Origin: Styela clava
Lineage: Eukaryota
DNA: 64,000 nt
Assembly: GCF_964204865.1 (NCBI RefSeq)
Contig: NC_135258.1
Coordinates: forward strand, 10,478,001 to 10,542,000
Direction of reading: 5' to 3'
The position numbers and the translations under genes are program-made. A model generated the notes under the pieces. The model searched no databases. It was not told where the DNA came from and was given only the letters and a program-made list of their open reading frames with translations. Of the stretch, positions 557 to 21,761 are shown piece by piece. Position 1 is the stretch's first letter; every line of letters starts with the position of its first letter.

Positions 557-3500
557 ATGGCTGCGGTTGATCGACTGAATGTGATCAGGGGCCATATTGG
601 ATATGACGTCCCAAAATTGGTAAGTTTAACTAGTGATTTATTATCTCACATTGTCTAGTATTTAATAATTTCAAATAGAGTTGGAAATAAGTTTTCAAGC
701 TTGAAATTATTAGGGATAAACCGAGCTTTGTTATAAAAATGATTAAATGTGAAAAAAAAAACTGACTGTATCCTCAGCTACAAACAGGAAGCGTTGAAAA
801 CTGGTCAGAACTGAATTGAGCCTAAAGCCAAAATTTGGGCTCATCGTGGTATTCAGTTTATCAAACCTATATCATCCGCGCTGTTTGTTTAATACAGATA
901 TTGTTAAATAGATTGGTGATTACTGAACTGAAAATTGATTGTTACTCATTGGGTGTCATTTTCAGGTTACTAAAATGACTTCATCTTCTGGATATCGGTA
1001 TACTTTAAATTATAATGGTAAACTAACGAACGAACAACGACAATTTTACGAGGAAAATGGATATCTTGTAGTGCGTAAGCTTGTTCCACAATATGAGCTT
1101 GATATTTATCGGATAAGATTTCATGAAATTTGCACAAAACAGGTCAGAACAAAGTACATATTGCCATATCCAAACGCACATTTTATTTGTAGCAATTTAC
1201 TTGGAATAATTGCTTTCTAGTATATTTTTGCGAAAATTCGCTTTGTGATTATTTTTGCATTATCCTTATATTGAAACGTAAAATTTAAATGAATACGTTA
1301 TGCGCCATTTCAAATGCCATACGTGTACGATGTGTTCATTACAATTGTACGAGTCAATTCATCTTTGGTTACATCGCTGGCTGCGTTTTGCCTGCGATTG
1401 ATTCACTCTGACACAAACGTTATTGATTCACTTTGACACAAACGTTTACTTGAACAATATGCATTTTAAAATTGAGGAATCTTCATACTCAATAATTTTC
1501 GGCGATTGTTAAATGCAGTAAATAGTTCTAAAGATTAGTAAGTCTTAATAAAATACAGAAGATTTGCAAATTGGATGTAAAAGTGGAATATCTAAAGATG
1601 AAACATAGTTACACTAAAATGTTTTACACATCTTATCTGCGTTGAAAAAATATAATTTCGTTATGTGTGAGTAAATCATTTATTGAAAATGATGAAGATT
1701 GCCATTCCCGGCCTAGGAATGATGAGGGATGTCTCCATTGCCAAAGACAAGTCAATACAAGGAGAAAAGGCAATTAACAAGATTCAGAATTTTCAAAACG
1801 ATCCTGTTCTTTTCAGTTATCTCCACTCTCCAAGGGTGAGTATTAAATTCCATAATAATTTGGTATTAGTGAAATCTTTCGTAAATAAATTGTTAATCAA
1901 TGAAATTTGGAAACTTTGAATTAGGTACAATTTGTGGTGACTAGCAATAGTAACTGCTAAGCATATGCTATGTAACCTGTTTTGATAAGGATTGGAAACG
2001 AGTAGCGGATGTAAGCAGTAATCTAATGGTAAAAAAGTTCACGAAGACAACTCTGTCATATCTCATTCTTACTTTCCAATAAAATCCATTTCTTGGAATC
2101 TTTATCCAACAAACAGCTTCAGTACAAACACTTTATGATTGGGCAAATTCGGAGAAACCAGTTGGATTTCTGACGATGACATCACAATTCTATTTTGGCA
2201 TCTCCAAAGATATTCTTTTCATTGAAAATTATTAAACGCCTTTCAGATCCTTCAATACGTCGAAGCCATCACTGGACCTGATATAACGGCCATTCATTCA
2301 ATGTTGATAAATAAACCCCCGGACTCAGGTAGGATACTATTTATTATAAAAATGTATATTGGGATCCAATGCTAGCGTAGATACCTTCAAATGTTGAGAT
2401 TATTTTTTTTTTCCAAACTATATGATGGCAAATCTCAGAACTTTCCTAAAAATCCGCATAAACACATGCGGGTATTGCAAACTGTTTTCTTCTAACATTA
2501 TACTGATTTGAGTTTGCTCTTAATAAATGTTTCTTGACCTTTTCTCGTTCACTATTATTGTGTGCAATATAACGTAAACATATTTGTGATGTTGGCCTAA
2601 TGATAATAATTATGCTATAGGCTTTGTTTGCTTTCTTGCCATGACGCTACTGCCGTGTTCATCTGCAATTATGCACGATCTACCGCCTTTTCAATGTAAT
2701 GTAAATGGTAGTCTATAATGGATGATTATAGGGGATATTATTTGCATCCATATTGAACATAATGAGACATATGGGTCATTTTGCTAAGTAAGCTATTGAT
2801 ACCCATGTGGTTGTTGTTGAAGAAGAAAACAGATTACTTTTGCAATTAGTCTCCGCTACTAAACCAATTTCAGCAGTAATAGAAGAACGTGTCTTCCAGA
2901 TTCTAGAGAATAGTAATTCTTATATTTTATCTGAAGCTTATTGTTTCACCCCAAACCTTGCCAATCAATGATGAAGTTCTTTTACACGAGGTCACTCAAC
3001 TAGTAACGGTAAGTAATAATGCCCGTACACCTGTGGTTTGTAATATGTTAATTTCAACGCAATAAATTTTTCACCCAGTTTGTATGGCCTGTTTAAAATC
3101 GCAAAAAATAAAAGATGTTATAGAAAAATGAAAAACTTTTTTCATCGTGTTAAGGTAAGAAGACATCTCGGCACCCGCTTCATCAAGACCTCCATTACTT
3201 TCTACTGCGACCTGAAGATCGGATTGCTGCTGCATGGACTGCAATGCAGAAAATTGACAGAAGTAATGGATGCCTTGTTGTACTGCCAGGAACACACAAG
3301 CAACCGTTGAAAGAGCATAATTATCCCGACTGGAAGGTTTATAATACTGTTCAGTTAGCTACTCTAAATGCTCATGCGATTATTTATGTAAATGGATTCT
3401 TTATTTAGATAAAGCAAATATAATCTAGTACTAATTAAATCTAACGTTTTAGGGTGGTGTGAATAAGATGTATTATGGAGTAGACGACTACGACGAAAAT

Positions 3501-4093
3501 GCTCCCAGACACCATCTAGTGATGGATGAAGGTGATACCGTATTCTTTCATCTATTACTCGTTCATGGTTCAGGAACGAATGTCAGTGATGGATTTAGAA
3601 AGGTGAGTCTTATCTTCAAAAATAGGTTTGAAACTTATTAATAACAAATGCAATTTGAATAAATCAATGAGAAATTGTATTCATGTAAGAGATTTGGAAT
3701 TACCCTAATTTCGTTATATAGTTTCAAATGAAGAACGCAGGTATTTCCTAACGTTCCTCTCTGAATTTTCAATAGTTGTTTATTGATAGATATTAACAGT
3801 TATGTAACTTCGATTAAACTTATCTTTTAATTCACTCATATGTATGTATTCGTGCGACATACAAATTATCAAATTATCGTATACAATTATTTATGAATAC
3901 CCCATTTTAGGCTATTAGTGGGCATTTCGCCAGCAGCCAGTGTCATTTCATTTCACCAGAAGGAACGTCACAGACAAATTATGTGACTGAACTTGCGGGC
4001 ATCGTGAAACGTCAAACGGGCAAGGATGTACCACATGAAGAAGGGGCTCGAGCAAAATATCGGGTGGTTCAAGGAATACGGAAAAACATTTAA
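557..4093 (+). CDS. PHYH: Phytanoyl-CoA dioxygenase (peroxisomal Fe(II)/2-oxoglutarate hydroxylase), 7 coding exons, 324 aa
   Basis: Exons 557-619, 966-1142, 1698-1835, 2247-2328, 3155-3336, 3453-3602, 3911-4093; all GT-AG and phase-compatible, 975 nt ending TAA. Translation contains [25 protein letters not shown] (HxD iron ligands), [16 protein letters not shown], GDTVFFHxLLVHGSG (third His), GFRKAIS (2-OG-binding Arg) and N-terminal PTS2-like RLNVIRGHI. Confidence 0.96.
1397..1446. repeat. 25-bp tandem duplication in PHYH intron 2
   Basis: ATTGATTCACTCTGACACAAACGTT followed by ATTGATTCACTTTGACACAAACGTT (1 mismatch). Confidence 0.92.
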
Positions 4094-10000: not shown

Positions 10001-10161
10001 GATATCTCGCAATGTATATTTAACTTATCCTAATTTTGTTTTCACAACATTGGCGGCGTTTTCAGTGATTTTTCTGCTTCCATGTAGACTTGTACTTAGT
10101 GATTTGCATCAACCGCAGGAAGATCGAACGAACTTCGAGTACGGACAAGTCACGCAACGTT

Positions 10162-13100
10162 ATGTCGCTCAGCAGCCGCAGCGAAAACGCGGCAACTCAG
10201 CCCAACGCCGGGGATTGGGATGTACTTTCTTTGCATTCAGATGAGGACGAACTTGAAAGAAATTCTCATTTAAATGTTGGCAAGAGAGCTTCTGCTTCTT
10301 TTGATAAAGATAGTCAGGGTCATAAGTCACCCAGAAAATCTGGTAGAGACTCAGACCGCTCATTTTCACGTAAAGTATGGAAGGTTTTTAGAACTCAAAA
10401 TTCAACTCCACCTGGTGGAAAAGTTTCTCCGCAAAACGATGAGAATAAACGAGGGGGTCCGAGCCCTGTGAGGAAAGCATTTTCTCGGAATCGAAGTGAT
10501 GAAATAGCCATGAAAGCATTTCCAGATCATAGGGACAAGGTCACACCTTTATCAGAACACAAAACAGCTTCTATAAAATCAAATGAATATAACACGACAC
10601 ACTACTCGAACCCCGCATATATCCCATCCAGAGAAGACGAAGATTACAATAGTGTACGTGGAAGCAAACGACGGTCTTATGAAGCCCCAATATATTCGGT
10701 AAACTCGGCTGGGCGTCCGATTCCTATTACAATTGAGGAATCAGAAAACGAAGATGAAGATACGGACTATGATACTTCACCCGAAACCGCTGATTCGGAT
10801 GATTCTCCGATGCCAACAGCGTCCAAAATATTTTTGCGATCGGGTTTTTGCTGCTGCAATGAAGACAATGACACAACTTTTACAGAAGCTGCTAAAGGGA
10901 AACTAGCTACCTGGTGGAGGCGAACATACAAACCAGATTCTAACGGAATATTCCTATGGCTATGCGTTGTTACAACAGCATTCTTATATAATATCTGGAC
11001 TATACCACTACGAGCAACTTATTTATCAGGTACAAATCATGTGATATTTTCTACATTGAGTATTAATAATTCAATTTTGTTTAGCAAACGCTAAATTTCT
11101 TCAAGATGAGCTTATACGTGATCGGGGATGATGCATCTTAATTTTTTTTGCGTTCGGCAAGTCAATTCGTTTATACTGCAAAACTTGTGGCTTGTAACTT
11201 TAACCAGTAGACTACAAAAGATATGGAGGATTGTTTTTAGGTTATCAATTAAAAAGTTTGTTTTGTTAGGCCGAAACCCATTCAAATAGGCTTGCAAGAC
11301 CGGCGGTCATCTACGACATTGATTAATATTGTCTATATATACTTTGACTTATTGTTTAATTTGCGATATTTTTTTGCTTATTTTATTTTAACAGTTTTCT
11401 GATCTGAATACAAGATTGTTGGGAAAATCCTTGCAAAAAAATAGAAAAATTGTGTCTTGTGTCCCCAGTATTATAAATGTCATTAACTATTAACCTGCTG
11501 CAGTCACGATTTGGGATTTATAACACTAATTTGCGAAATGCTGCAACTAATTGTTTATATAAATGCTGCGAATAGTGGAATAGCTTGTAAAATTTTCACT
11601 ATAATTTTACTGCAATATTGCAGTAATAAGATGAAGGCACGAGGCCACAGTTAATTTGAACTATTCTGCAAATGATTTTTTTTGTGGCTGTACTATGGGT
11701 TGCTATTTATTCATATATATTTAACCCAAATAAATATATTTAGAGATTTTTCTCGTTACAAGAAAATCACGATTATAGTTAGTAAACAAGAACATTTTTG
11801 AATCAATATAAATTTGTAGTTTTTTGACTTGGCTAGACATTGAATGTAATGTTTTCTACTTTATTCCACAATCTCTAGAACGAGATAAAAATAGAATTCC
11901 GTTTCGACATTTCACGAAATTAATAAATTTTATTGTCTTCTGTCACGTTTGAAATTTGCTTACGAATTAGATTGTAAGAAACTTTTTCGGTTTTTGTCTA
12001 TTAAATAAAATTAATGAAATTCAAATTTGCAAAATTAATTTAAACTGCGATAGTCCAGTTAATATCCAACTTTTAAGCAATTTATTAATACGGGGCAAAC
12101 AAACAAAATCTAATTGATTTATTACTTCTTAACAACAAATCTATTGCATTAAGGTATTAAACAATGACGGGAATTTTTAAAAATTCAGCAAAAACTCCAT
12201 TTGTCATTTTCTAAATTTATCATCGATTATATAAAATGTCCAATTCCATCCGTTATGTAACAGACCATGAATTGCCCAGTTTTCCACGGAAGGGAAGTGG
12301 CTGCTTTATAGAAGTAATGTTAAAGGTACATTTCATGTTTTCAACTACATGTCTTTTTGACCCCAAAATCTTTGACATCGCGCGCACGCGCCCTAACAAC
12401 GGAATGAAAAAAAGCTCATCACGCCCATTTTTAAATTTGTTTATACAACGCACGTGTCGCTCCGTAACTAAGGTACATAGTAAAGATATATTGATACATA
12501 TAGTATAAATTCACGGTAATTCAAAACTGTTGTAACATCAAATGAAATCAATATGATACCAATCCCCTTGTATGATCTAGTGTATATAGGCTGCTACATC
12601 TTTTATCCACATTTGGCCAAATCATCACATACTATATCGATTAAGTGTTTACATTTACCCAGCAAAGTGTGTTAATTTGTTTAAGGTTTTACGTAGTATG
12701 ATAGGGTGATTATGCAATCTATCGTATGAAACGAAAATAAATGACTCAGAACTGCCCCACTTTTCACCACCCTCGGTGAATTCTTTTACGGGAGCGGGAT
12801 GTTAAAGCACTTTCTCAGGGTTCTCACCTTACGTAATATCAATGCGAAGACATGTTTTGTGCCATATTCATATCTTGCTAACAATGGATGGCGCGTGACT
12901 TCAAAGAGAGTGGAGGTCAACAGATGCCTTATATATCCTATTAATAAAATATTTTTAAGAAACAAGAAAATTTGAAAATAGAAAAAGTTATTTAAAATAT
13001 TTCAGTTTTTAAAATGTTGGAATAATCGTTTTGTTTCAATGTAATTCAGAAAATATTAGACACAATGTGGATCGTTTCGCTAAATTTTGTTATTGTTGAT

Positions 13101-16100
13101 TTTATTGTTGTTTATATTATTGCAATACGACGCATTCAAATTTGTGATTGTAAAAAAATGAAAGAATTTTTAAGAAATTTTCCAATGTGTGCATAATTAT
13201 ATCGAGGAACGTTTCGAAGTTTTATTGCTATAGTTTGTATATCATAATACGAATATTAATTATTATCAACATATAGTTGAAACATATAGAATATATAGTT
13301 GAAAAAGCTTTTGCTATACCTGAAAATTTATCTGGACGAGTATTTTTTACAAATGATTATTTCTCATAATTTCTATATATTAACCAAAACTATTTGCTAA
13401 TATTAGGGTTTGCCATGTAGAAATTAATATTTTAATTTTCAAACAAACACTCCTATGCTTCACGTTTTACAAAAATGAATTAAATGCCTTTTCCTATTTT
13501 CAGAAATACAATCATCATGGAAAGATATCTGGTTTACATTTGATGCACTGTGTGATCTTATTTTTGTTGTTGATATTTTCATCAAGTTCCGAACATGTTA
13601 TATAAAAAGCGGAGTTTTTGTATCTGGTAAACTAATTCTTTTTTTCCTTAGATTGTAAAACTCTTAGAATAATTTTTGTTTGAAAATATGAATATCTTTT
13701 TATTTCCACTCGCTTTTGATCTGATTAAATCATGCAGACTAAATCCTATGAACATGACGAATTCTATTTTGACTCCTATTTTTTATTTTCAGATTTGCAG
13801 CAATTGAATCGTCATCATCGTAAAGAATGGACACTTTTTCTTGATATTCTTGCAATACTTCCTACAGATTTATTATTCATTCACAGCATAAATCCATACT
13901 TTCGTCTGAATCGACTATTTAAAATATATAGAGTTGTAAGTATTTGGTTTCTGAAATAGTTTAAAAATAGAAATTTTCTTTATATTTTTTGAAACCGACG
14001 GTATTTTATATCCATATTTTGTGATAAAGTATTCATAATTTTACAGTTCACTTTTTATCAATGTGGGGAGTTGAGCACGTGGATGCCAAACTTATGGAGA
14101 ACACTCAATTTATTCCACGTATTTCTTGTGGTTATTCATTACAATGCCTGCTTTTATTACGCATTGTCGGAATCAAATGGGTTTGGTGAGTATTTGTTAC
14201 TATTTTTAAGCACATGATTCATAATGGGATGTGGCCTTGATAGCTTTAGAGATATAGAAAATATTTTAAATGTCGTAGAAAAAAATGGCGCTCTGGTTAG
14301 TGGTCACCGAAGTTCAAATTTACGTGATCCGCAGTTGAGAAAGTAAGAAAGAGAAACAAAATATTGTAACGACACAACCGGGAAAAGTATTTTAAATCCA
14401 ATAATCAGATTACAATTTACAATACGCCAGTTTCCTTTCTTCGAATTAATTATGTCTCTCCTCTTTATTTATTGAGTTCTCTTAATGTTAAATTTCCCAT
14501 TGGTTTCTAATGATCATTTCGAATAAAATTACGAATGTACTGTAATCAATTCGACGAACAATTCTCTTTTCAAGCCATTCATTTCATTACAACTATGTAT
14601 TTGTATGATATGAGTCACACACAGAAAAAATCTCGGGGATGCGTTCCTGGATGACAAATACTCATTTGAAAAGAAATATTATACTGTTGTGAACCCCCTT
14701 TCCATTCCATTTCCCTCTAAACATCGAGTAAGTTTGGGCGACACTGTACAACTGTAAAGCACACAAATATGTTATCAACATTCGTTGTTTTTCTTTTGTG
14801 ATTGGCGTTGGTTCAGTACATTACAATTTTATTTACACAGGTACCACACTGACAAGTTGGCCGTACCCTGACCCAACGTACTTTCCAGAATATGCCACAA
14901 TGTATCGCAAATATACATATTCTTTCTATTGGTGTATGGTTGGGCTTGGAATTGTAAACGATCGATACTTTCCGGAAACCAATTGGCAGTAAGTATATCC
15001 GGATCTCAAAATTTTGTAATATGCCCAGTTTTTCAAGAATAAAATGATAATGCAAAAGAATTGCACTCTGACCAATATACTGTGTCAAGATAAAAACCTG
15101 TTTTGATTGCTAGAATTCGCAGGGATCAAACTGTTATATAAACGACTATTCCTCCATTTTGTGCATGAAAATAAACCCATTAATACGTATTTGTTTTGAT
15201 GTGGGGTAATGGTAAATCTCATTTCATAAACAATATTAAAACTTAACACCTTCATTTATTTTACAGATTCGTTTTTTCAATCTACTTACATCTGTTGGGA
15301 ATGCTTTTTTTGGCAATATTTATTGGTAAGTATATGCGTTTAAAAGGAACAAACAAAATATGCTACATCTTCAAATATTTATTGTCTGTTGAAACTCTAT
15401 CAATAATGAAATTTTAACTAATCACCATTCACTGCAAAAATATAATGGATAAAATGAATACATTAGTATAGAAGCTTTGGCTCTATACCAATATGGTGCA
15501 TAAATCCTATCCTAAAGCGAATAATTTAAATAGCTAAACATAGCACCAGCTACGAAATAATTGTTTTTACTCTTGCTTTGCATCATATTGGGAAATAACA
15601 AGAAACTGTAATCAATATGTTTGCAGATTCAAGCCACATTACTTTACAAATAAGATAAATCATGTTGTATCAACGTTTCACTGAAGCATAACCATTCCCC
15701 TGAACCACATGATGTAATACATGCTTCGCATATTCCCTGAAACGCATGTGTTCAACACACTTTGCTAGAGGTGTCTTTCGTCATTGCTAATTTTGTGGTA
15801 TTCCATCATTAGTTAGCCCCATTACTTTTAAAGTAGGGGTAACTTTGCTTTTATAGGTTCAGGTACGTTTTCAGTAGGTTTATCTGAGTATTACTATTCA
15901 TAATTAAGTATTTAATATAAAAATAATCAACATTAAAACTGACTTATAATTGTATATAAAATGATTACATAAAAAAATGATCCTTTATTTGCCCACTCAA
16001 TTAAAATTGACATTGTAATAATAGAATAGTATCGACATGAAAAGTTAGCGGTTGACACGAGTCATAAAACAATTCATTACAGCACTTTTACATTTCATTT

Positions 16101-19100
16101 CAAGACTGTATACTCTTAATTTAATTTCAGTTATTATTCATTTCACATTTATAATGTTCTGTTTGTTTCAAAGGTTTCATTACCGTACTGTTATTCGGAA
16201 AAACTTCTCCAAAGTTTGAGTTTGAAAAGATAATGCTGGACACAAGAGAATATATGAAACAACGAAAACTTCCCAGGGAATTGCAAACTAGAGTTCTACG
16301 TTTTTATCAGTATTCATGGGTGAAGTAAGTACGGAAAATAAACAGCAAATAATACAATATAAACAAGTCTTATGGAATTCGGTGATTGGTGTTTAAATTG
16401 CAATTCCAGTTAATAGAAACAGCTCTTGTGTTCTTAAAAGTTTCTAATATATATGGCTTGGTATTTAGTGTTGTACAAAAATTGAATGTACACTATTTTG
16501 GATTTTCATGACAATTTACGGTATCAAAGCGATAGTTCGTAGTTTTGAAACTTCATTTGTTTTGAAACATCATCAAATCTAAAAATAATCAAATTCATTC
16601 TGTATCCTTGTTAAAACTAACTTCGATTATAATACTTCATACTGAGCAGTTTTAATGTAGTGTTTCATATGCCGATTTATACACAAACACAGGTCGAAAT
16701 TCCGTTTACAACTTTATGCTGTATTTAATAATATATACATTACTTTTTATTCATTTTTGTTTCAGTCAACAATTTCCGCATTTGGACGAGGGAAATATGC
16801 TACGATATCTTCCGGTGTCCGTTCGCCAGGAAATAGAATTACATTCCAACCTAACAGCTTTGAAACAGGTATTGTGACCTTTTGTTTTGAAAGTTACAAA
16901 CGTGACCTAAAGGGTAATCTATCAGTATTTAATTCCTTGGCAACCCCAAAACAGTGAGACTTTTCTCATATTGTCTCCCCCGCAATGTCAAGATATTACG
17001 TAAAATTTAGATTTATTTACATTGATCCTGAAGTAATTTCCCAGAAATAATATAAAGTAAATAATCAGTGATAGATAAGTGAAAGAAAATCATATTTATT
17101 ATCGAGATGATTTACGCACTACCGTACTGCAATTTATGGTTTCTCGTGTTTCGGCTTTGCGAAACCATCATAAAAAGTACTACACCACAGTATGACGTTT
17201 TGTGGCGCATTATCGGTTCAGCTGAGGTCAAGTTCACCCCTTTGATATTTAGGAAACGTGTATCGTATTTACAAAATCAACACAAATATATCAGAATAAA
17301 TTATTTGCCCCAAACGTATTCGGGTATAAAAATATTATTTGAGAAAAAATCAGACAGGTCAATAACCCCTAATAGGTGTTCTAAGGCAGCTGTTCCAATA
17401 CACTAATTGAAATAGGTGGGGCTGCGCTTAATGATGCAATTTTTATGGGGTCTGAAAGTCGGCAATTTATATGTTAAAAGTTTCTATATCATACTTCGAA
17501 GATCTCCACTAGACATCGCATCGCACATAGACGTCGCACCATAACATATAAACAATTTTTGAAATTTTAATAAGTTTTTATATATATTCTTTCCTTTGTA
17601 TGCAAATTTTTTCAAATATCATATTAATCCCGCATGGAATGTCTGCGTTATTGTACTCATCGACCACCTACAATAGTATACAAATAATGCCAAAAGTCAA
17701 TTTACATTTGCGTCATATCGATAATTATGTTTAAAACATAACATTTACAGTGAGCTGTGTCTCCTAAGATATAATCGCATTATATATTGATAAAACAGCA
17801 GACAAAGCCACTCGATTATAACAAATTTCAGTGTCAAACGTAACAGAAATATATGATAGCAGTAGTTCAATTAACACCCTGCGACATTTTTTGTATCGTT
17901 ATTGCAACTATAAATTTATTGAAATATCACCTTGTATGGTTTGTATGTTCGATTTTTAAATAGTCCATGATTATATATCAAAATAAAGTTTCGCGACTTA
18001 AGAAAATACAAAAATTACGTCATAAATTAATCACAAGGTTCAAATAGACCAGCCATAAGAAACTAGCGAAATAGCATCACATTGTTTTTGGCCGCTACCG
18101 TCGAAAATCTGTAATTTAAGTCACCCAGAAAATCCAGATCTTAAAATGGTTTACGATAAGTAAACAAAACGTTTGTGGTTACGACGAGTTTTGTTTAGGC
18201 GTCTGATGAACATCCTGCAATGACAATATTACTTAAATGACCCTTAAAAAATGTCAACAAACTGTCGAGAAAACGCTTGAAAATATCAACCAATAAATCA
18301 TAAAGAAACAGCAAACTCTTCCGATAGACATGAACAAATTTACTGGAAATACAATAATATATTTAATAATTTGAGTTTTACCGATGTGCAATTGAAAACA
18401 GTCATTCAATTTTGGAGTAATGATACTATTAATTCCTCTAAAATCCATAGCCTGTAACTATATATGACCTCAAACCAATAAAAATTACTGTAAACAGGGA
18501 TTTATTTTCAGCAGTCATGTCTTATTGATATTCCAAATACTGTGTTTGGTAAAACTATATTGAGATATGAAAACGCTCTCGGCCCCACACTGTTTTGTAA
18601 TATATTATACATTTAATTAGTATCGAGAATTTTACCAAGTATTTGCAAAATATTTTTGGGCCAATGCCTTGAAATTGCGAGAGTGTGAGACAAATTAACT
18701 CAACATTTATAGTTTGATTACCTGTAATATTCTATTAATTTGTATAATATTAAGTGAATTTCAGATTTATATGAAGTTAAAAATGCGATTGCCTATTGAT
18801 ACGTTTTCACTTTAGATTCCTAGTTTGGCGCGATGCGATTCTAACATCCTTCGAGATCTGGTGATGAGGCTGAAGAGATGCATGTACTTACCTGGACAAT
18901 TTGTTTATAAATGTGGGGAGGTTGGCACTGAGATGTATATTGTCGGCGAAGGGATATTACAAGTTGTCAGGTTGATACTTTTTCATTTTAATAAATTTCA
19001 AATTTTTACCACTATTTGAGGCTGCTTTGATAACGCAACTGCCTCGTAAGGTGAAGAATGTTTATATGAAGGTATATGTCGCATTTTAGATTCCAACATG

Positions 19101-20485
19101 TCCCAGTTATTTGTTGTTGAAGACATCTTCACAACAAAACCCGTTCCAAAATCTCGTTATAAAATAAAAACTGAATACATATTTCTGTAACAGGGAAACG
19201 GATCCTGTAATATATTCACTCAGAGAAGGCGACGTTTTTGGAGAAATTGATTTATTCAACGCGTCGACTAAAAGACGAACGGCCGACGTGGTTTCGTATG
19301 GTTACTCCGAACTGTATGTATTGTCAAGCGAAGACGTGATGGAAACCCTAAAAAAGTATCCAAAATTTATGGTAAGAACCAGTTCTCAGATTTCATATAT
19401 ATATTTTCCTAAGACTGGTTTTCATACACTCGAATCTTTTACAGAACTTGGTGCATCAGCAAGAAAAGCGCCAGAGAAGCAACATGAAAGAATACAGAGC
19501 ATATGGAGGGAAATATCAAGCTTTATCAACAGCAAGTATTCGAAGCCAAGCTGATTCAAAAATTTCTGCATCAAAAGTTCATTTTCACATGAACGGCGGT
19601 GTTCGTCGATCAGCTTCTTTACCAGGGAGCAGGTACATTTTTCAAAGTTTTCGTATGAATGAGAAACACAATTCGCTAGTACCTTGCAAAATTTACATTA
19701 TACAAAGATATGTAATAAAAACATCCCTATGTACTCACCAGGTTTACAATATCAAATCATTTTATCTCATTTGTATATATTTTCTACTCCGTGTTTAGTC
19801 CTGATAGTGGAATACCGTCAACTCCAAGCATGGGACCTTCCTACACCAGTGAATCGCCTTCGAATTTGAATCCACAACAAGAAACACTGAAATCAGAACT
19901 GACAGATAAGATAACATCGCTGTACCAGGACCACATGAAATCACTCAAGGCATCCTTGGATGGAGTTTGGGTAAATTTATTTCCTAACCACTTACTCTTT
20001 TTTCCGGCATATATATATGGCAATATATTAGTCACCATAAGCTTTGAAATATCGTCCACATGTTTACGCCCTTCTCAAATTTGTCTGCTGTGCTTTTTCA
20101 GTACCAAGAGATATCGTACCTGCACCAGAGGCTAGACGACACAGAACAAGAGCGAGACGTAAAAGCGCGGGAAATTACTCATCTTCGTCGCCAACTAACG
20201 AAAGGTATTGCACAAGATATTGCTGTCAAAAAACAGGTGAATGAACAAATTGTGATTCAGGAAGAATCCACGCTCACAGAGTCAATGCCTACGGATAATA
20301 ACAATTCTGTCGAACAATCAGTAAAAGCAGGTACTCAAAAACATGGTGATGATGCAATGCGTGTTGTTGACGAAGAGAAATCTACGTCGCCACAGAAAGT
20401 AATTCGATCTGTGAAAAGAATGGCCAGCGCTTTCGAGGCAGGGGTTCAACCTTTTGGGTCTGTATCGTCAGTTGATGACAGCTGA
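10162..20485 (+). CDS. Cyclic-nucleotide-gated cation channel subunit (CNG alpha/CNGL-like, divergent pore), 13 coding exons, about 936 aa
   Basis: Exons 10162-11029, 13504-13626, 13793-13935, 14047-14185, 14841-14988, 15267-15325, 16174-16324, 16766-16868, 18816-18970, 19194-19371, 19445-19632, 19799-19970, 20102-20485; 2811 nt in frame. Motifs: S1 FLYNIWTIPLRATY, S2 DLIFVVDIFIKFRTCY, S3 LDILAILPTDL, S4 RLNRLFKIYRV, S5 IHYNACFYY, pore helix RKYTYSFYW, C-linker EYMKQRKLPRELQTRV, CNBD GEVGTEMYIV..FGEIDL..RRTADV..GYSELYVLS, C-terminal coiled coil. Start codon less certain (an acceptor lies at 10087). Confidence 0.93.
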
Positions 20486-21761
20486 AACTGAAAGCCAGAA
20501 ACTGGATACATTTTGTTTCTTCTGCCTGCGATGAAAACAGATATGCTTACGGCAGAAAGCATAAAACAATCAATAATATTTTCAAATTTTCATATAATAT
20601 TGCATATTTACTAAATACATTCTTTATAAATTCATTGAAATAGACGTGTCATTATTTTTTCATTGTCGCAGCAGAATAGCAAGGAAGTCATAATTATGAA
20701 TGTTTATCGTAGATGACTTTATCTAAAAGTGACAGTATTAGTGGCCACAAACTATCCTGAACGTTTTTATTTAATTTCACATTCGAGAATCGAATTAAGG
20801 TTAGCATAGACAAATAGTTTGTACTTCAGAACAACTTTTGTTACAAGGTACAACAGAAACACAAGGTCATTCATGAAATTTCGTACCCTTTGTTAGAGAT
20901 GTTCTAGTCTATGATATATATATATTTTAAAAGGTTTTCAAAATTGTATGAATTTGAACAAAATCAACGGAAATATTTGCATACTACACCCCAATGGTGT
21001 CTATTTTATCACAATATGACTCAAGTTCAGAAAAAAATTTGGTTCCAACTTTTGTGGCCACTTTCCAATTTCGACTCCAGCTCTCAATTTACTACACTAC
21101 ATCATAACAAAATTTCGACATCCAAATCTTCTAGGCTGGCAAGAAATATTCTGTCTTAGTTGTAAATCTAGATTACGACTCCCATCTTATGTCTAAATTT
21201 TCAACCTTAGGCTCACAAAAGTTTAATACAATATTCTGACTTGAACGAAGATGGACTAAGGAACGCCAGTCACGATTTCAAAGAAACATCCTCTGTTGTA
21301 TTGGCTTAACACAAAATATTATACATTCATCTTTTCCTACACTATTACAATTGAAGTGAATATAATGGAATTTGCAGATTTTGTTTTATTAGCTATTTTT
21401 CTACGACAGTACATATAATATATATCTTCTAGCAGCAATTGGTACCCGGTTATTTGGTTGTCAGCGGCCATCAGTCGATAGATTATGATCGCTCATATCT
21501 TGTCGGAAGTACCAAGCAGGGCGGTTCAAAACATGCAGCATCTAACTCCGGAACTTTGCATACTTTCCAATATCTTCGAAATTAGTTGAAGTCAGACACC
21601 AACAACCTTATTAAGACAAATTGCCTCTCGCAACCTAACAGAACATGCCGATATTCCATTAGGCATTTCATACATATCAATACGACAGATATTAAGATTA
21701 AACAATTCTCAGAGAAACTTTATGAGGCAAAAGGAAAGAAAATAGCCCAACCCCTATCTGA

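Follow-up and report, generated by a model that had tools for sequence, protein, structure and literature searches.

A Styela clava CNG-channel subunit with a noncanonical pore loop, placed by sequence in a separate tunicate and acorn-worm clade whose pore region appears to drift

Introduction

Few parts of cyclic nucleotide-gated (CNG) channels are as well conserved as the selectivity filter, and this holds even for the one-copy beta subunits. An earlier note on a 64,000-nucleotide stretch of the Styela clava genome (contig NC_135258.1, positions 10,478,001 to 10,542,000; hereafter the window) reported a CNG channel gene whose pore loop departs from this filter, with IVND in place of TIGE, and proposed either an altered ion selectivity or a non-conducting modulatory subunit. 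The locus raises the question of whether the departure is real and, if so, whether it represents a tuned new filter or a pore released from constraint.

Gene structure and transcript support

Built from the window sequence, the gene is an open reading frame of 936 residues in 13 exons (10162-20485, forward strand), with GT-AG ends at all introns, which bears out the earlier description of an intact gene. Its product differs from the database protein XP_039263695.1 of Styela clava (P0001 in our set) at one of 936 residues (residue 96). The features are as follows, in window positions.

10162..11029, + strand: exon 1, with the ATG, a long low-confidence N-terminus and S1
13504..13626, + strand: exon 2, S2
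13793..13935, + strand: exon 3, S3 and S4
13903..13932, + strand: S4 charges R368, R371, K374 and R377, a series unbroken in five of five clade members
14047..14185, + strand: exon 4, S5
14841..14988, + strand: exon 5, with the turret, pore helix and pore loop; present in spliced contigs and variant-free in two contigs
14900..14947, + strand: predicted pore helix M445-L460, including G459-L460 of "GLG", outside the filter
14948..14962, + strand: filter positions G461-I-V-N-D465, aligned to CNGA1 T359-E363
14963..14974, + strand: R466-Y-F-P469, with the third proline retained (near-invariant, 117/119 proteins)
15267..15325, + strand: exon 6, S6; L489 stands at a position that is Phe in 110/119 proteins
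16174..16324, + strand: exon 7, end of S6 and start of the C-linker
16766..16868, + strand: exon 8, C-linker
18816..18970, + strand: exon 9, first half of the cyclic-nucleotide-binding domain (CNBD)
19194..19371, + strand: exon 10, with the phosphate-binding cassette (19237-19281); G646, E647, R658 and T659 retained
19445..19632, + strand: exon 11, C-helix; M703 (19484-19486) is at the CNGA1 D604 position by ungapped count
19799..19970, + strand: exon 12, where the clade-specific C-terminal helix begins (residues 778-863, 19875-20263)
20102..20485, + strand: exon 13, with the remaining C-terminal helix, the tail and the stop codon

Transcripts were sought in four sequencing runs from three studies, the RNA status of which is the tool's guess, none being recorded as RNA. 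In two of the four runs, from two different studies, one contig each joins all 12 introns and carries the pore exon without any difference; the other two runs are fragmentary and leave the pore exon uncovered. The contigs contain 12 synonymous and 2 non-synonymous coding variants (K96E and H361N), none of them in the pore exon, giving a pN/pS of 0.05 (binomial p 1.4e-6) from 14 coding differences, some of which lie on single low-depth contigs; with only two contigs, constraint and a small sample are inseparable as reasons for the absence of pore variants. No second pore-like exon was found within the 64-kb window. The gene is thus whole, spliced and under purifying selection, and the pore exon is the one truly used. 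The earlier note had named a dN/dS near 1 without expression as the mark of a decaying paralogue, and the data run the other way.

The longest contig of one of these runs (X4) begins with 9 loose letters that are absent from the window and meet it at an AG acceptor some 96 bases 5' of the ATG (10064-10066). They would fit a trans-spliced leader, such leaders being known from ascidians, or a distant 5' exon. The same contig diverges from the window at 20526, in the 3' UTR, and rejoins it at 21447 without GT-AG ends, possibly because of a 920-base insertion/deletion allele or because the contig is chimeric.

Pore loop

The translation of 14927-14974 (+), in exon 5, is YWCMVGLGIVNDRYFP, the trailing WQF being created by the splice to exon 6. 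It pairs ungapped with YWSTLTLTTIGETPPP of CNGA1, and the match to bovine CNGA1 (PDB 7o4h_A, E 2.3e-89) has no gaps across the pore. The resulting pairs, CNGA1 first, are T357>G459, T359>G461, T360>I462, I361>V463, G362>N464, E363>D465, T364>R466, P365>Y467 and P366>F468, with P367 unchanged as P469. The family filter T-I-G-(E/D/G/K/N) is therefore absent from the Styela protein, which reads G461-I-V-N-D465, and both the register and the loss of the filter glycine stand as first described.

How unusual each change is was judged against other CNG-like proteins. Of 191 proteins, 44 multi-domain, 4 short or distant and 1 without a match were dropped, leaving 142, and removal of near-duplicates gave 120 for FastTree and 119 for the counts. 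The filter glycine, called near-invariant in the earlier note, is indeed found at the G362 position in 113/119 single-domain proteins, the exceptions being Asn in Styela, Ser in Ptychodera, Asn in a rotifer, Thr in Artemia and two gaps. Thr occupies the T359 position in 106/119, and Gly is found there in Styela only; a hydrophobic residue at T360 occurs in 6/119, namely four members of the tunicate group and two echinoderm proteins of the TIGD clade described below. The other changes stressed at first are ordinary: Asp at the E363 position is common (42/119), Arg at T364 occurs in 7/119 (five of them as TIGER), and Pro is present at P366 in only 19/119, the remaining 100 being non-Pro. The Asp for Glu, the Arg that follows it and the loss of two prolines all have precedent; what is rare is to lose the filter Gly and the two Thr. 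The candidate reading of GLG as a K-channel signature was rejected: it aligns to T357-T359, at the end of the pore helix and away from the GYG position, in agreement with the first description of a filter unlike GYG or GFG.

Mutagenesis of bovine CNGA1 gives a functional scale for these positions, as far as the available part of the source goes (PMC2229457). In homomers, G18C (G362C) gave only a very low open probability and S10C (S354) no current, and P21C and P22C (P365C and P366C) still conducted, the residue numbers here having been converted from the R1-S27 numbering by our own count. Styela has Asn and Cys at the G362 and S354 positions. By the same count, it retains the scaffold residues Y347, Y349, Y352, L358 and P367, whose Cys mutants kill CNGA1, and its changes fall mainly outside those Tyr, Leu and Pro positions whose mutation abolished current. 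No paper on CNGA3 pore disease alleles was found in the literature search.

In the AlphaFold monomer, residues 445-460 form a pore helix and residues 461-471 a loop, with a pLDDT of 87 at 461-470; since the alignment supplied to the model consists mostly of canonical CNG proteins, this value is no independent evidence on the pore.

Family assignment and phylogeny

The protein is assigned by sequence to the CNG-channel family. Pfam finds Ion_trans (PF00520, E 7.6e-17) and cNMP_binding (PF00027, E 7.1e-13) and no other domain, and among solved structures CNGA1 and CNGA3 come closest (E about 1e-89), versus 1e-33 for KCNH2 and 1e-27 for HCN1. In trees, the protein groups within CNG as against CNGK-type domains, and it lacks a GYG/GFG filter. 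The predicted fold matches best CNG structures in the PDB, with a whole-chain rmsd of 16-21 A between the monomer model and the solved chains. Atlas searches with the core matched generic CNG clusters only. A cyclic-nucleotide-gated cation current is a trait of this family and is putative for the Styela protein.

Orthologues were found in Clavelina (54% identity over the core), Ciona (48%; XP_002122672) and the acorn worm Ptychodera (41%); further members of the clade are P0092, a protein which clusters with the tunicate sequences, and a fragment covering the C-terminus from another acorn worm, Glandiceps. When the pore-loop columns are left out, the five proteins that cover the pore form one clade (SH-aLRT 99-100). 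In three quick trees this clade is sister (SH-aLRT 98-99) to the TIGD clade, which holds genes of Trichoplax, lancelet, echinoderms and protostomes and the Styela gene on contig C3; all our trees are FastTree or quick trees. The phylogeny thus places the gene inside CNG, as against CNGK-type domains, and in a clade of its own. We infer that the TIGD clade is the CNGD of Lagman et al. 2022 (PMC9803222), since the available text names the single gene of Trichoplax CNGD and says that tunicates kept CNGD; another passage of it describes placozoans as being without CNGD.

AU tests (LG+G4), all of which long branches may bias, rejected a grouping with CNGA (p-AU 0.0004). They also rejected nesting with the CNGD genes of deuterostomes (0.0001) or of bilaterians (0.010). 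The clade falls outside CNGB in all trees, and a forced CNGB clade is disfavoured yet unrejected at p-AU 0.098, with the same possible bias. The Arg that is typical of CNGB in S6, three residues past a conserved Gly, is absent: Styela has T497 and the orthologues T, S, T and I. Gene structure agrees with a CNGD kinship suggested by the trees. Candidate splice sites of the C3 gene, compared by eye, coincide in position and phase with four introns of the subject gene, those after residues 473 (phase 2), 493 (phase 1), 578 (phase 0) and 629 (phase 2). Exon 6 has boundaries and phases identical to those of the matching exon of this CNGD-like gene, while 0/10 core introns match the CNGA or CNGB genes, for which the splice sites are likewise candidates compared by eye.

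The subject gene is the fifth CNG gene of Styela, since two CNGA genes (TIGE), one CNGB (TIGN) and one CNGD-like gene of the TIGD clade (TIGEKQSP) are also present, on contigs C5, C18 and C3. Styela and Ptychodera each carry a separate canonical gene of the TIGD clade. In the Styela CNGD-like gene (C3, about 20.92 Mb) a Lys follows the Glu of the filter and two prolines are lost, and the CNGB gene (C18, about 15.64 Mb) has TIGN; pore-loop variation in the Styela genome thus seems wider than the subject gene. On contig C16 (16.148-16.150 Mb), an open frame of 1423 residues with three cNMP-binding matches is possibly an intron-poor CNGK-type channel.

Conservation across the clade

Among the orthologues found, IVND occurs in Styela only. 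The filter strings are GIVND in Styela, TFIGG in Clavelina, TLVGG in Ciona, NFIGG in P0092 and MTVSS in Ptychodera, so that no filter residue is common to all five members, and in three orthologues, as in CNGB1, Gly takes the place of the filter Glu. A conservation of IVND in relatives, which the earlier note had suggested looking for, was therefore not found.

The mean pairwise identity of the filter (461-465) is 0.24 in the subject clade, versus 0.41 for the whole core; the corresponding values are 0.95 and 0.62 in CNGA, 0.59 and 0.51 in CNGB, 0.88 and 0.56 in the TIGD clade and 0.82 and 0.58 in the C-type group. The difference in identity between the pore (456-505) and S1-S4 is -0.10 [-0.20, 0.00] in the subject clade and -0.07 [-0.18, 0.03] when P0092 is left out, the intervals coming from a bootstrap over only five pore-bearing members that ignores phylogeny. 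The same difference is +0.31 in CNGA, +0.12 in CNGB, +0.22 in TIGD and +0.33 in the C-type group. S6 identity within the subject clade is likewise low (0.33-0.35). The end of the pore helix, the filter and S6 are thus no better conserved here than the voltage sensor, in contrast to four of the five other CNG groups. This clade is not alone in the pattern, since a mixed sixth group, which holds the degenerate filter of the rotifer, also has no pore excess (0.00).

Positions conserved in at least 85% of 114 other CNG proteins give the same picture by region. Styela keeps 14/17 of them in S1-S4, 8/8 in S5 and the turret and 2/6 in 456-469. Across the clade the ranges are 14-16/17 in S1-S4, 7-8/8 in S5 and the turret, 2-5/6 in the filter region, 1-4/6 in S6, 4-10/15 in the C-linker and 5-29/34 in the CNBD. 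For the latter, Styela keeps 26/34, Ciona 19/34 and P0092 5/34, and P0092 has no cNMP Pfam hit. Based on these comparisons, the whole pore region of this separate CNG clade would seem to be drifting.

Side observations concern single proteins. P0092 retains S1-S5 and stops before the C-terminal helix. In another CNG clade, P0109, P0156, P0170 and P0165 (rotifer, Artemia, leech and cestode) have filters reading TQNQ, STTS or SAGS, or a deletion; since these proteins fall in a different clade, their filter losses are apparently independent.

S4, nucleotide site and C-terminal helix

In all five members, S4 carries four basic residues in register (R-R-R/K-R). A neutral Met gap in this series, of the kind found in HCNL, was looked for and is absent in five of five. 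At the D604 position of CNGA1, Styela and Clavelina have Met by ungapped count, a count that is uncertain because the C-helix is divergent. In the available part of PMC2233835, Met at position 604 marks the olfactory modulatory subunit and gives CNGA1 selectivity for cAMP.

A long helix (residues 778-863) is common to the Styela, Clavelina, Ciona, Ptychodera and Glandiceps proteins. It had no significant match among the other CNG proteins compared (best outside match E 0.014), and Atlas searches named no family for it. The CLZ domain (PF16526), which underlies the 3:1 assembly of principal subunits (PMC12549891, as far as its available text goes), was absent from P0001 and from the six clade proteins scanned and was found in a fish CNGA control. 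A heptad scan of the helix gave no clean register (at best 0.46 hydrophobic), and folding of residues 775-866 as four copies scored 0.19 against a mark of 0.32, which is evidence neither way.

Discussion

Our working hypothesis, in which belief and doubt weigh about equally, is that the gene encodes an intact subunit from a separate CNG clade of tunicates and acorn worms, modulatory or silent, with a pore that would no longer set selectivity and would be under relaxed constraint. A modulatory or silent role is favoured since a filter that changes from species to species hardly looks like a device tuned for selectivity, and IVND is likely the product of drift in one lineage rather than a tuned new filter. 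The bulky hydrophobic residue at T360 in all four members of the tunicate group runs counter to drift, as it could have been selected. The proposal of a non-conducting or modulatory subunit is thus the better supported half of the earlier inference, and the other half, a rewritten filter and an altered selectivity, loses ground because IVND is confined to Styela and the orthologue strings are unrelated to it.

Such a subunit would be the minority partner in assemblies whose Thr-Ile-Gly-Glu filter would come from CNGA or CNGD-like subunits; canonical potential partners (two CNGA, one CNGB and one CNGD-like) are coded in the same genome. S1-S5, the C-linker and the C-terminal helix would serve assembly, and the nucleotide site contributed by the Styela subunit would favour cAMP (M703). 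The expected outcome for the heteromer is a lower conductance, an altered divalent block or silencing, and the subunit alone would give little or no current; both the assembly and the effect on the partner current are what we infer from the pattern. An ordinary beta-like role would explain the drift incompletely, since the filter of CNGB is far better kept (0.59) than that of the subject clade (0.24). Ligand tuning cannot be the shared job of the clade, given how few conserved CNBD positions P0092 and Ciona keep.

Distinctly less probable, yet the nearest competitor, is a protein in which the central pore does not conduct and which works through another part, as does zebrafish HCNL1, or serves some complex as its membrane scaffold or nucleotide sensor. 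HCNL1 shows the same signature, a filter that varies between species together with a non-conducting pore, and there the argument that such variation means an untuned filter was later confirmed by recordings (PMC7306766, in its available part). The retention of S1-S5 and of the C-terminal helix while the filter, S6, the C-linker and some CNBDs decay, and a filter freer than that of CNGB, would suit this reading. However, HCNL1 conducts through a Met gap in S4 (same source), and all five members here have the unbroken basic series; furthermore, Styela keeps the phosphate-binding cassette and most conserved CNBD positions, and the predicted fold and pore helix are of the CNG-channel type. In its broadest form, to which we attach the same tentative weight, the clade would be an ancient and undescribed tunicate/acorn-worm CNG subfamily without central-pore conduction, a CNG counterpart of HCNL1 that acts as silencer, sensor or alternative-pathway channel through S1-S5 and the C-terminal helix.

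We regard as unlikely a homotetramer that conducts, with changed selectivity or divalent block, and has a hydrophobic residue at T360 and a filter that is wide and poorly selective. The intact frame and purifying selection, the retained scaffold residues that are lethal as Cys mutants in CNGA1, the Asp kept in Styela and the hydrophobic T360 change common to four members are all compatible with it, and single filter charges can switch CNG selectivity, as the available part of PMC2151509 reports. A selected filter should nevertheless be conserved, and the five orthologues have no common filter residue; in a tetramer, the pore would presumably be crowded by four Ile or Phe side chains at T360 plus four Asn at G362, and S6 is also weakly conserved.

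Still less credit can be given to an ordinary, normally conducting CNGD-type subunit with a fast evolutionary rate in tunicates. The sister relationship to the TIGD clade and the four intron positions common with candidate sites of the Styela CNGD-like gene point that way, but Styela and Ptychodera hold separate canonical TIGD-clade genes, nesting in deuterostome CNGD was rejected (subject to the long-branch caveat above), and the acceleration is uneven, striking the pore, C-linker and CNBD and sparing S1-S5. Finally, although near-invariant residues are lost, a decaying paralogue, an annotation error or the reading of a wrong exon can practically be set aside, given the full open frame, the 12/12 introns joined in contigs of two studies, the pN/pS of 0.05, the orthologues from ascidians to acorn worms and the absence of an alternative pore exon from the window.

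Returning to a modulatory or silent subunit, comparison with known systems shows partial likenesses. The CNGD/TIGD subfamily is the sister group, shares the four intron positions through its Styela member and lacks CLZ, but the subject gene stands separately beside a canonical gene, has lost the T-I-G-D/E filter and has its own C-terminal helix. CNGB1 and CNGB3 resemble it in lacking CLZ, in the Gly at the filter Glu position of three orthologues and in the predicted minority role; they differ in the S6 Arg, replaced here by T497, in sharing no introns through the Styela CNGB and in a far better conserved filter, and Styela has its own CNGB. The olfactory modulatory subunit CNGA4 has, according to the available texts, an Asp at the acidic filter position (PMC12549891) and Met at 604 (PMC2233835), but it carries a CLZ helix (PMC12549891), and the CNGA clade is rejected for our protein. 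HCNL1, a zebrafish HCN-like proton channel (PMC7306766, in part), is also a CNBD-family channel with a filter that varies between species; it comes from another parent family, and the subject protein lacks its S4 Met gap and has, in Styela, an intact phosphate-binding cassette. Caenorhabditis elegans CNG-1/2/3 and CHE-6 are likewise diverged accessory CNG subunits beside a canonical pair, as described in the available part of PMC8045692. The rotifer, Artemia, leech and cestode proteins share degenerate filters (TQNQ, STTS) and belong to a different clade.

The A-F scheme of Lagman et al. credits Ciona with CNGA, CNGB and CNGD and describes CNGE as cnidarian-only, in the text available (PMC9803222), and three Ciona CNG genes are listed in the corresponding part of PMC8835908. 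Searches of four supplements of the former for Ciona, Styela and the accession gave 0 hits. The Ciona protein passes the Pfam filter of that study, as given in the available text, and may sit unremarked in its tree; the Ptychodera protein, with no Ion_trans hit, would fail. Full-text literature searches, the coverage of which leaves out most subscription journals, found no description of the clade or of its pore, and the protein is already in databases under generic names. The clade may add a subfamily to the published scheme.

We want to emphasize that the loss of pore constraint across the clade is more interesting than the IVND string itself. Retained in acorn worms as well as ascidians, and combining purifying selection with a free pore loop, such a subunit would be a natural experiment on the roles of CNG subunits beyond the filter. 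The Ciona orthologue XP_002122672 opens the way directly to expression mapping, knock-out and recordings in oocytes.

Two further genes were noticed in the window by eye from translations. Exons at about 940-4090 (+) resemble what we take to be a phytanoyl-CoA dioxygenase. Those at about 26014-58700 (+) resemble what is presumably agrin, with a signal peptide, Kazal/follistatin repeats, laminin EGF and a Ser/Thr-rich stretch.
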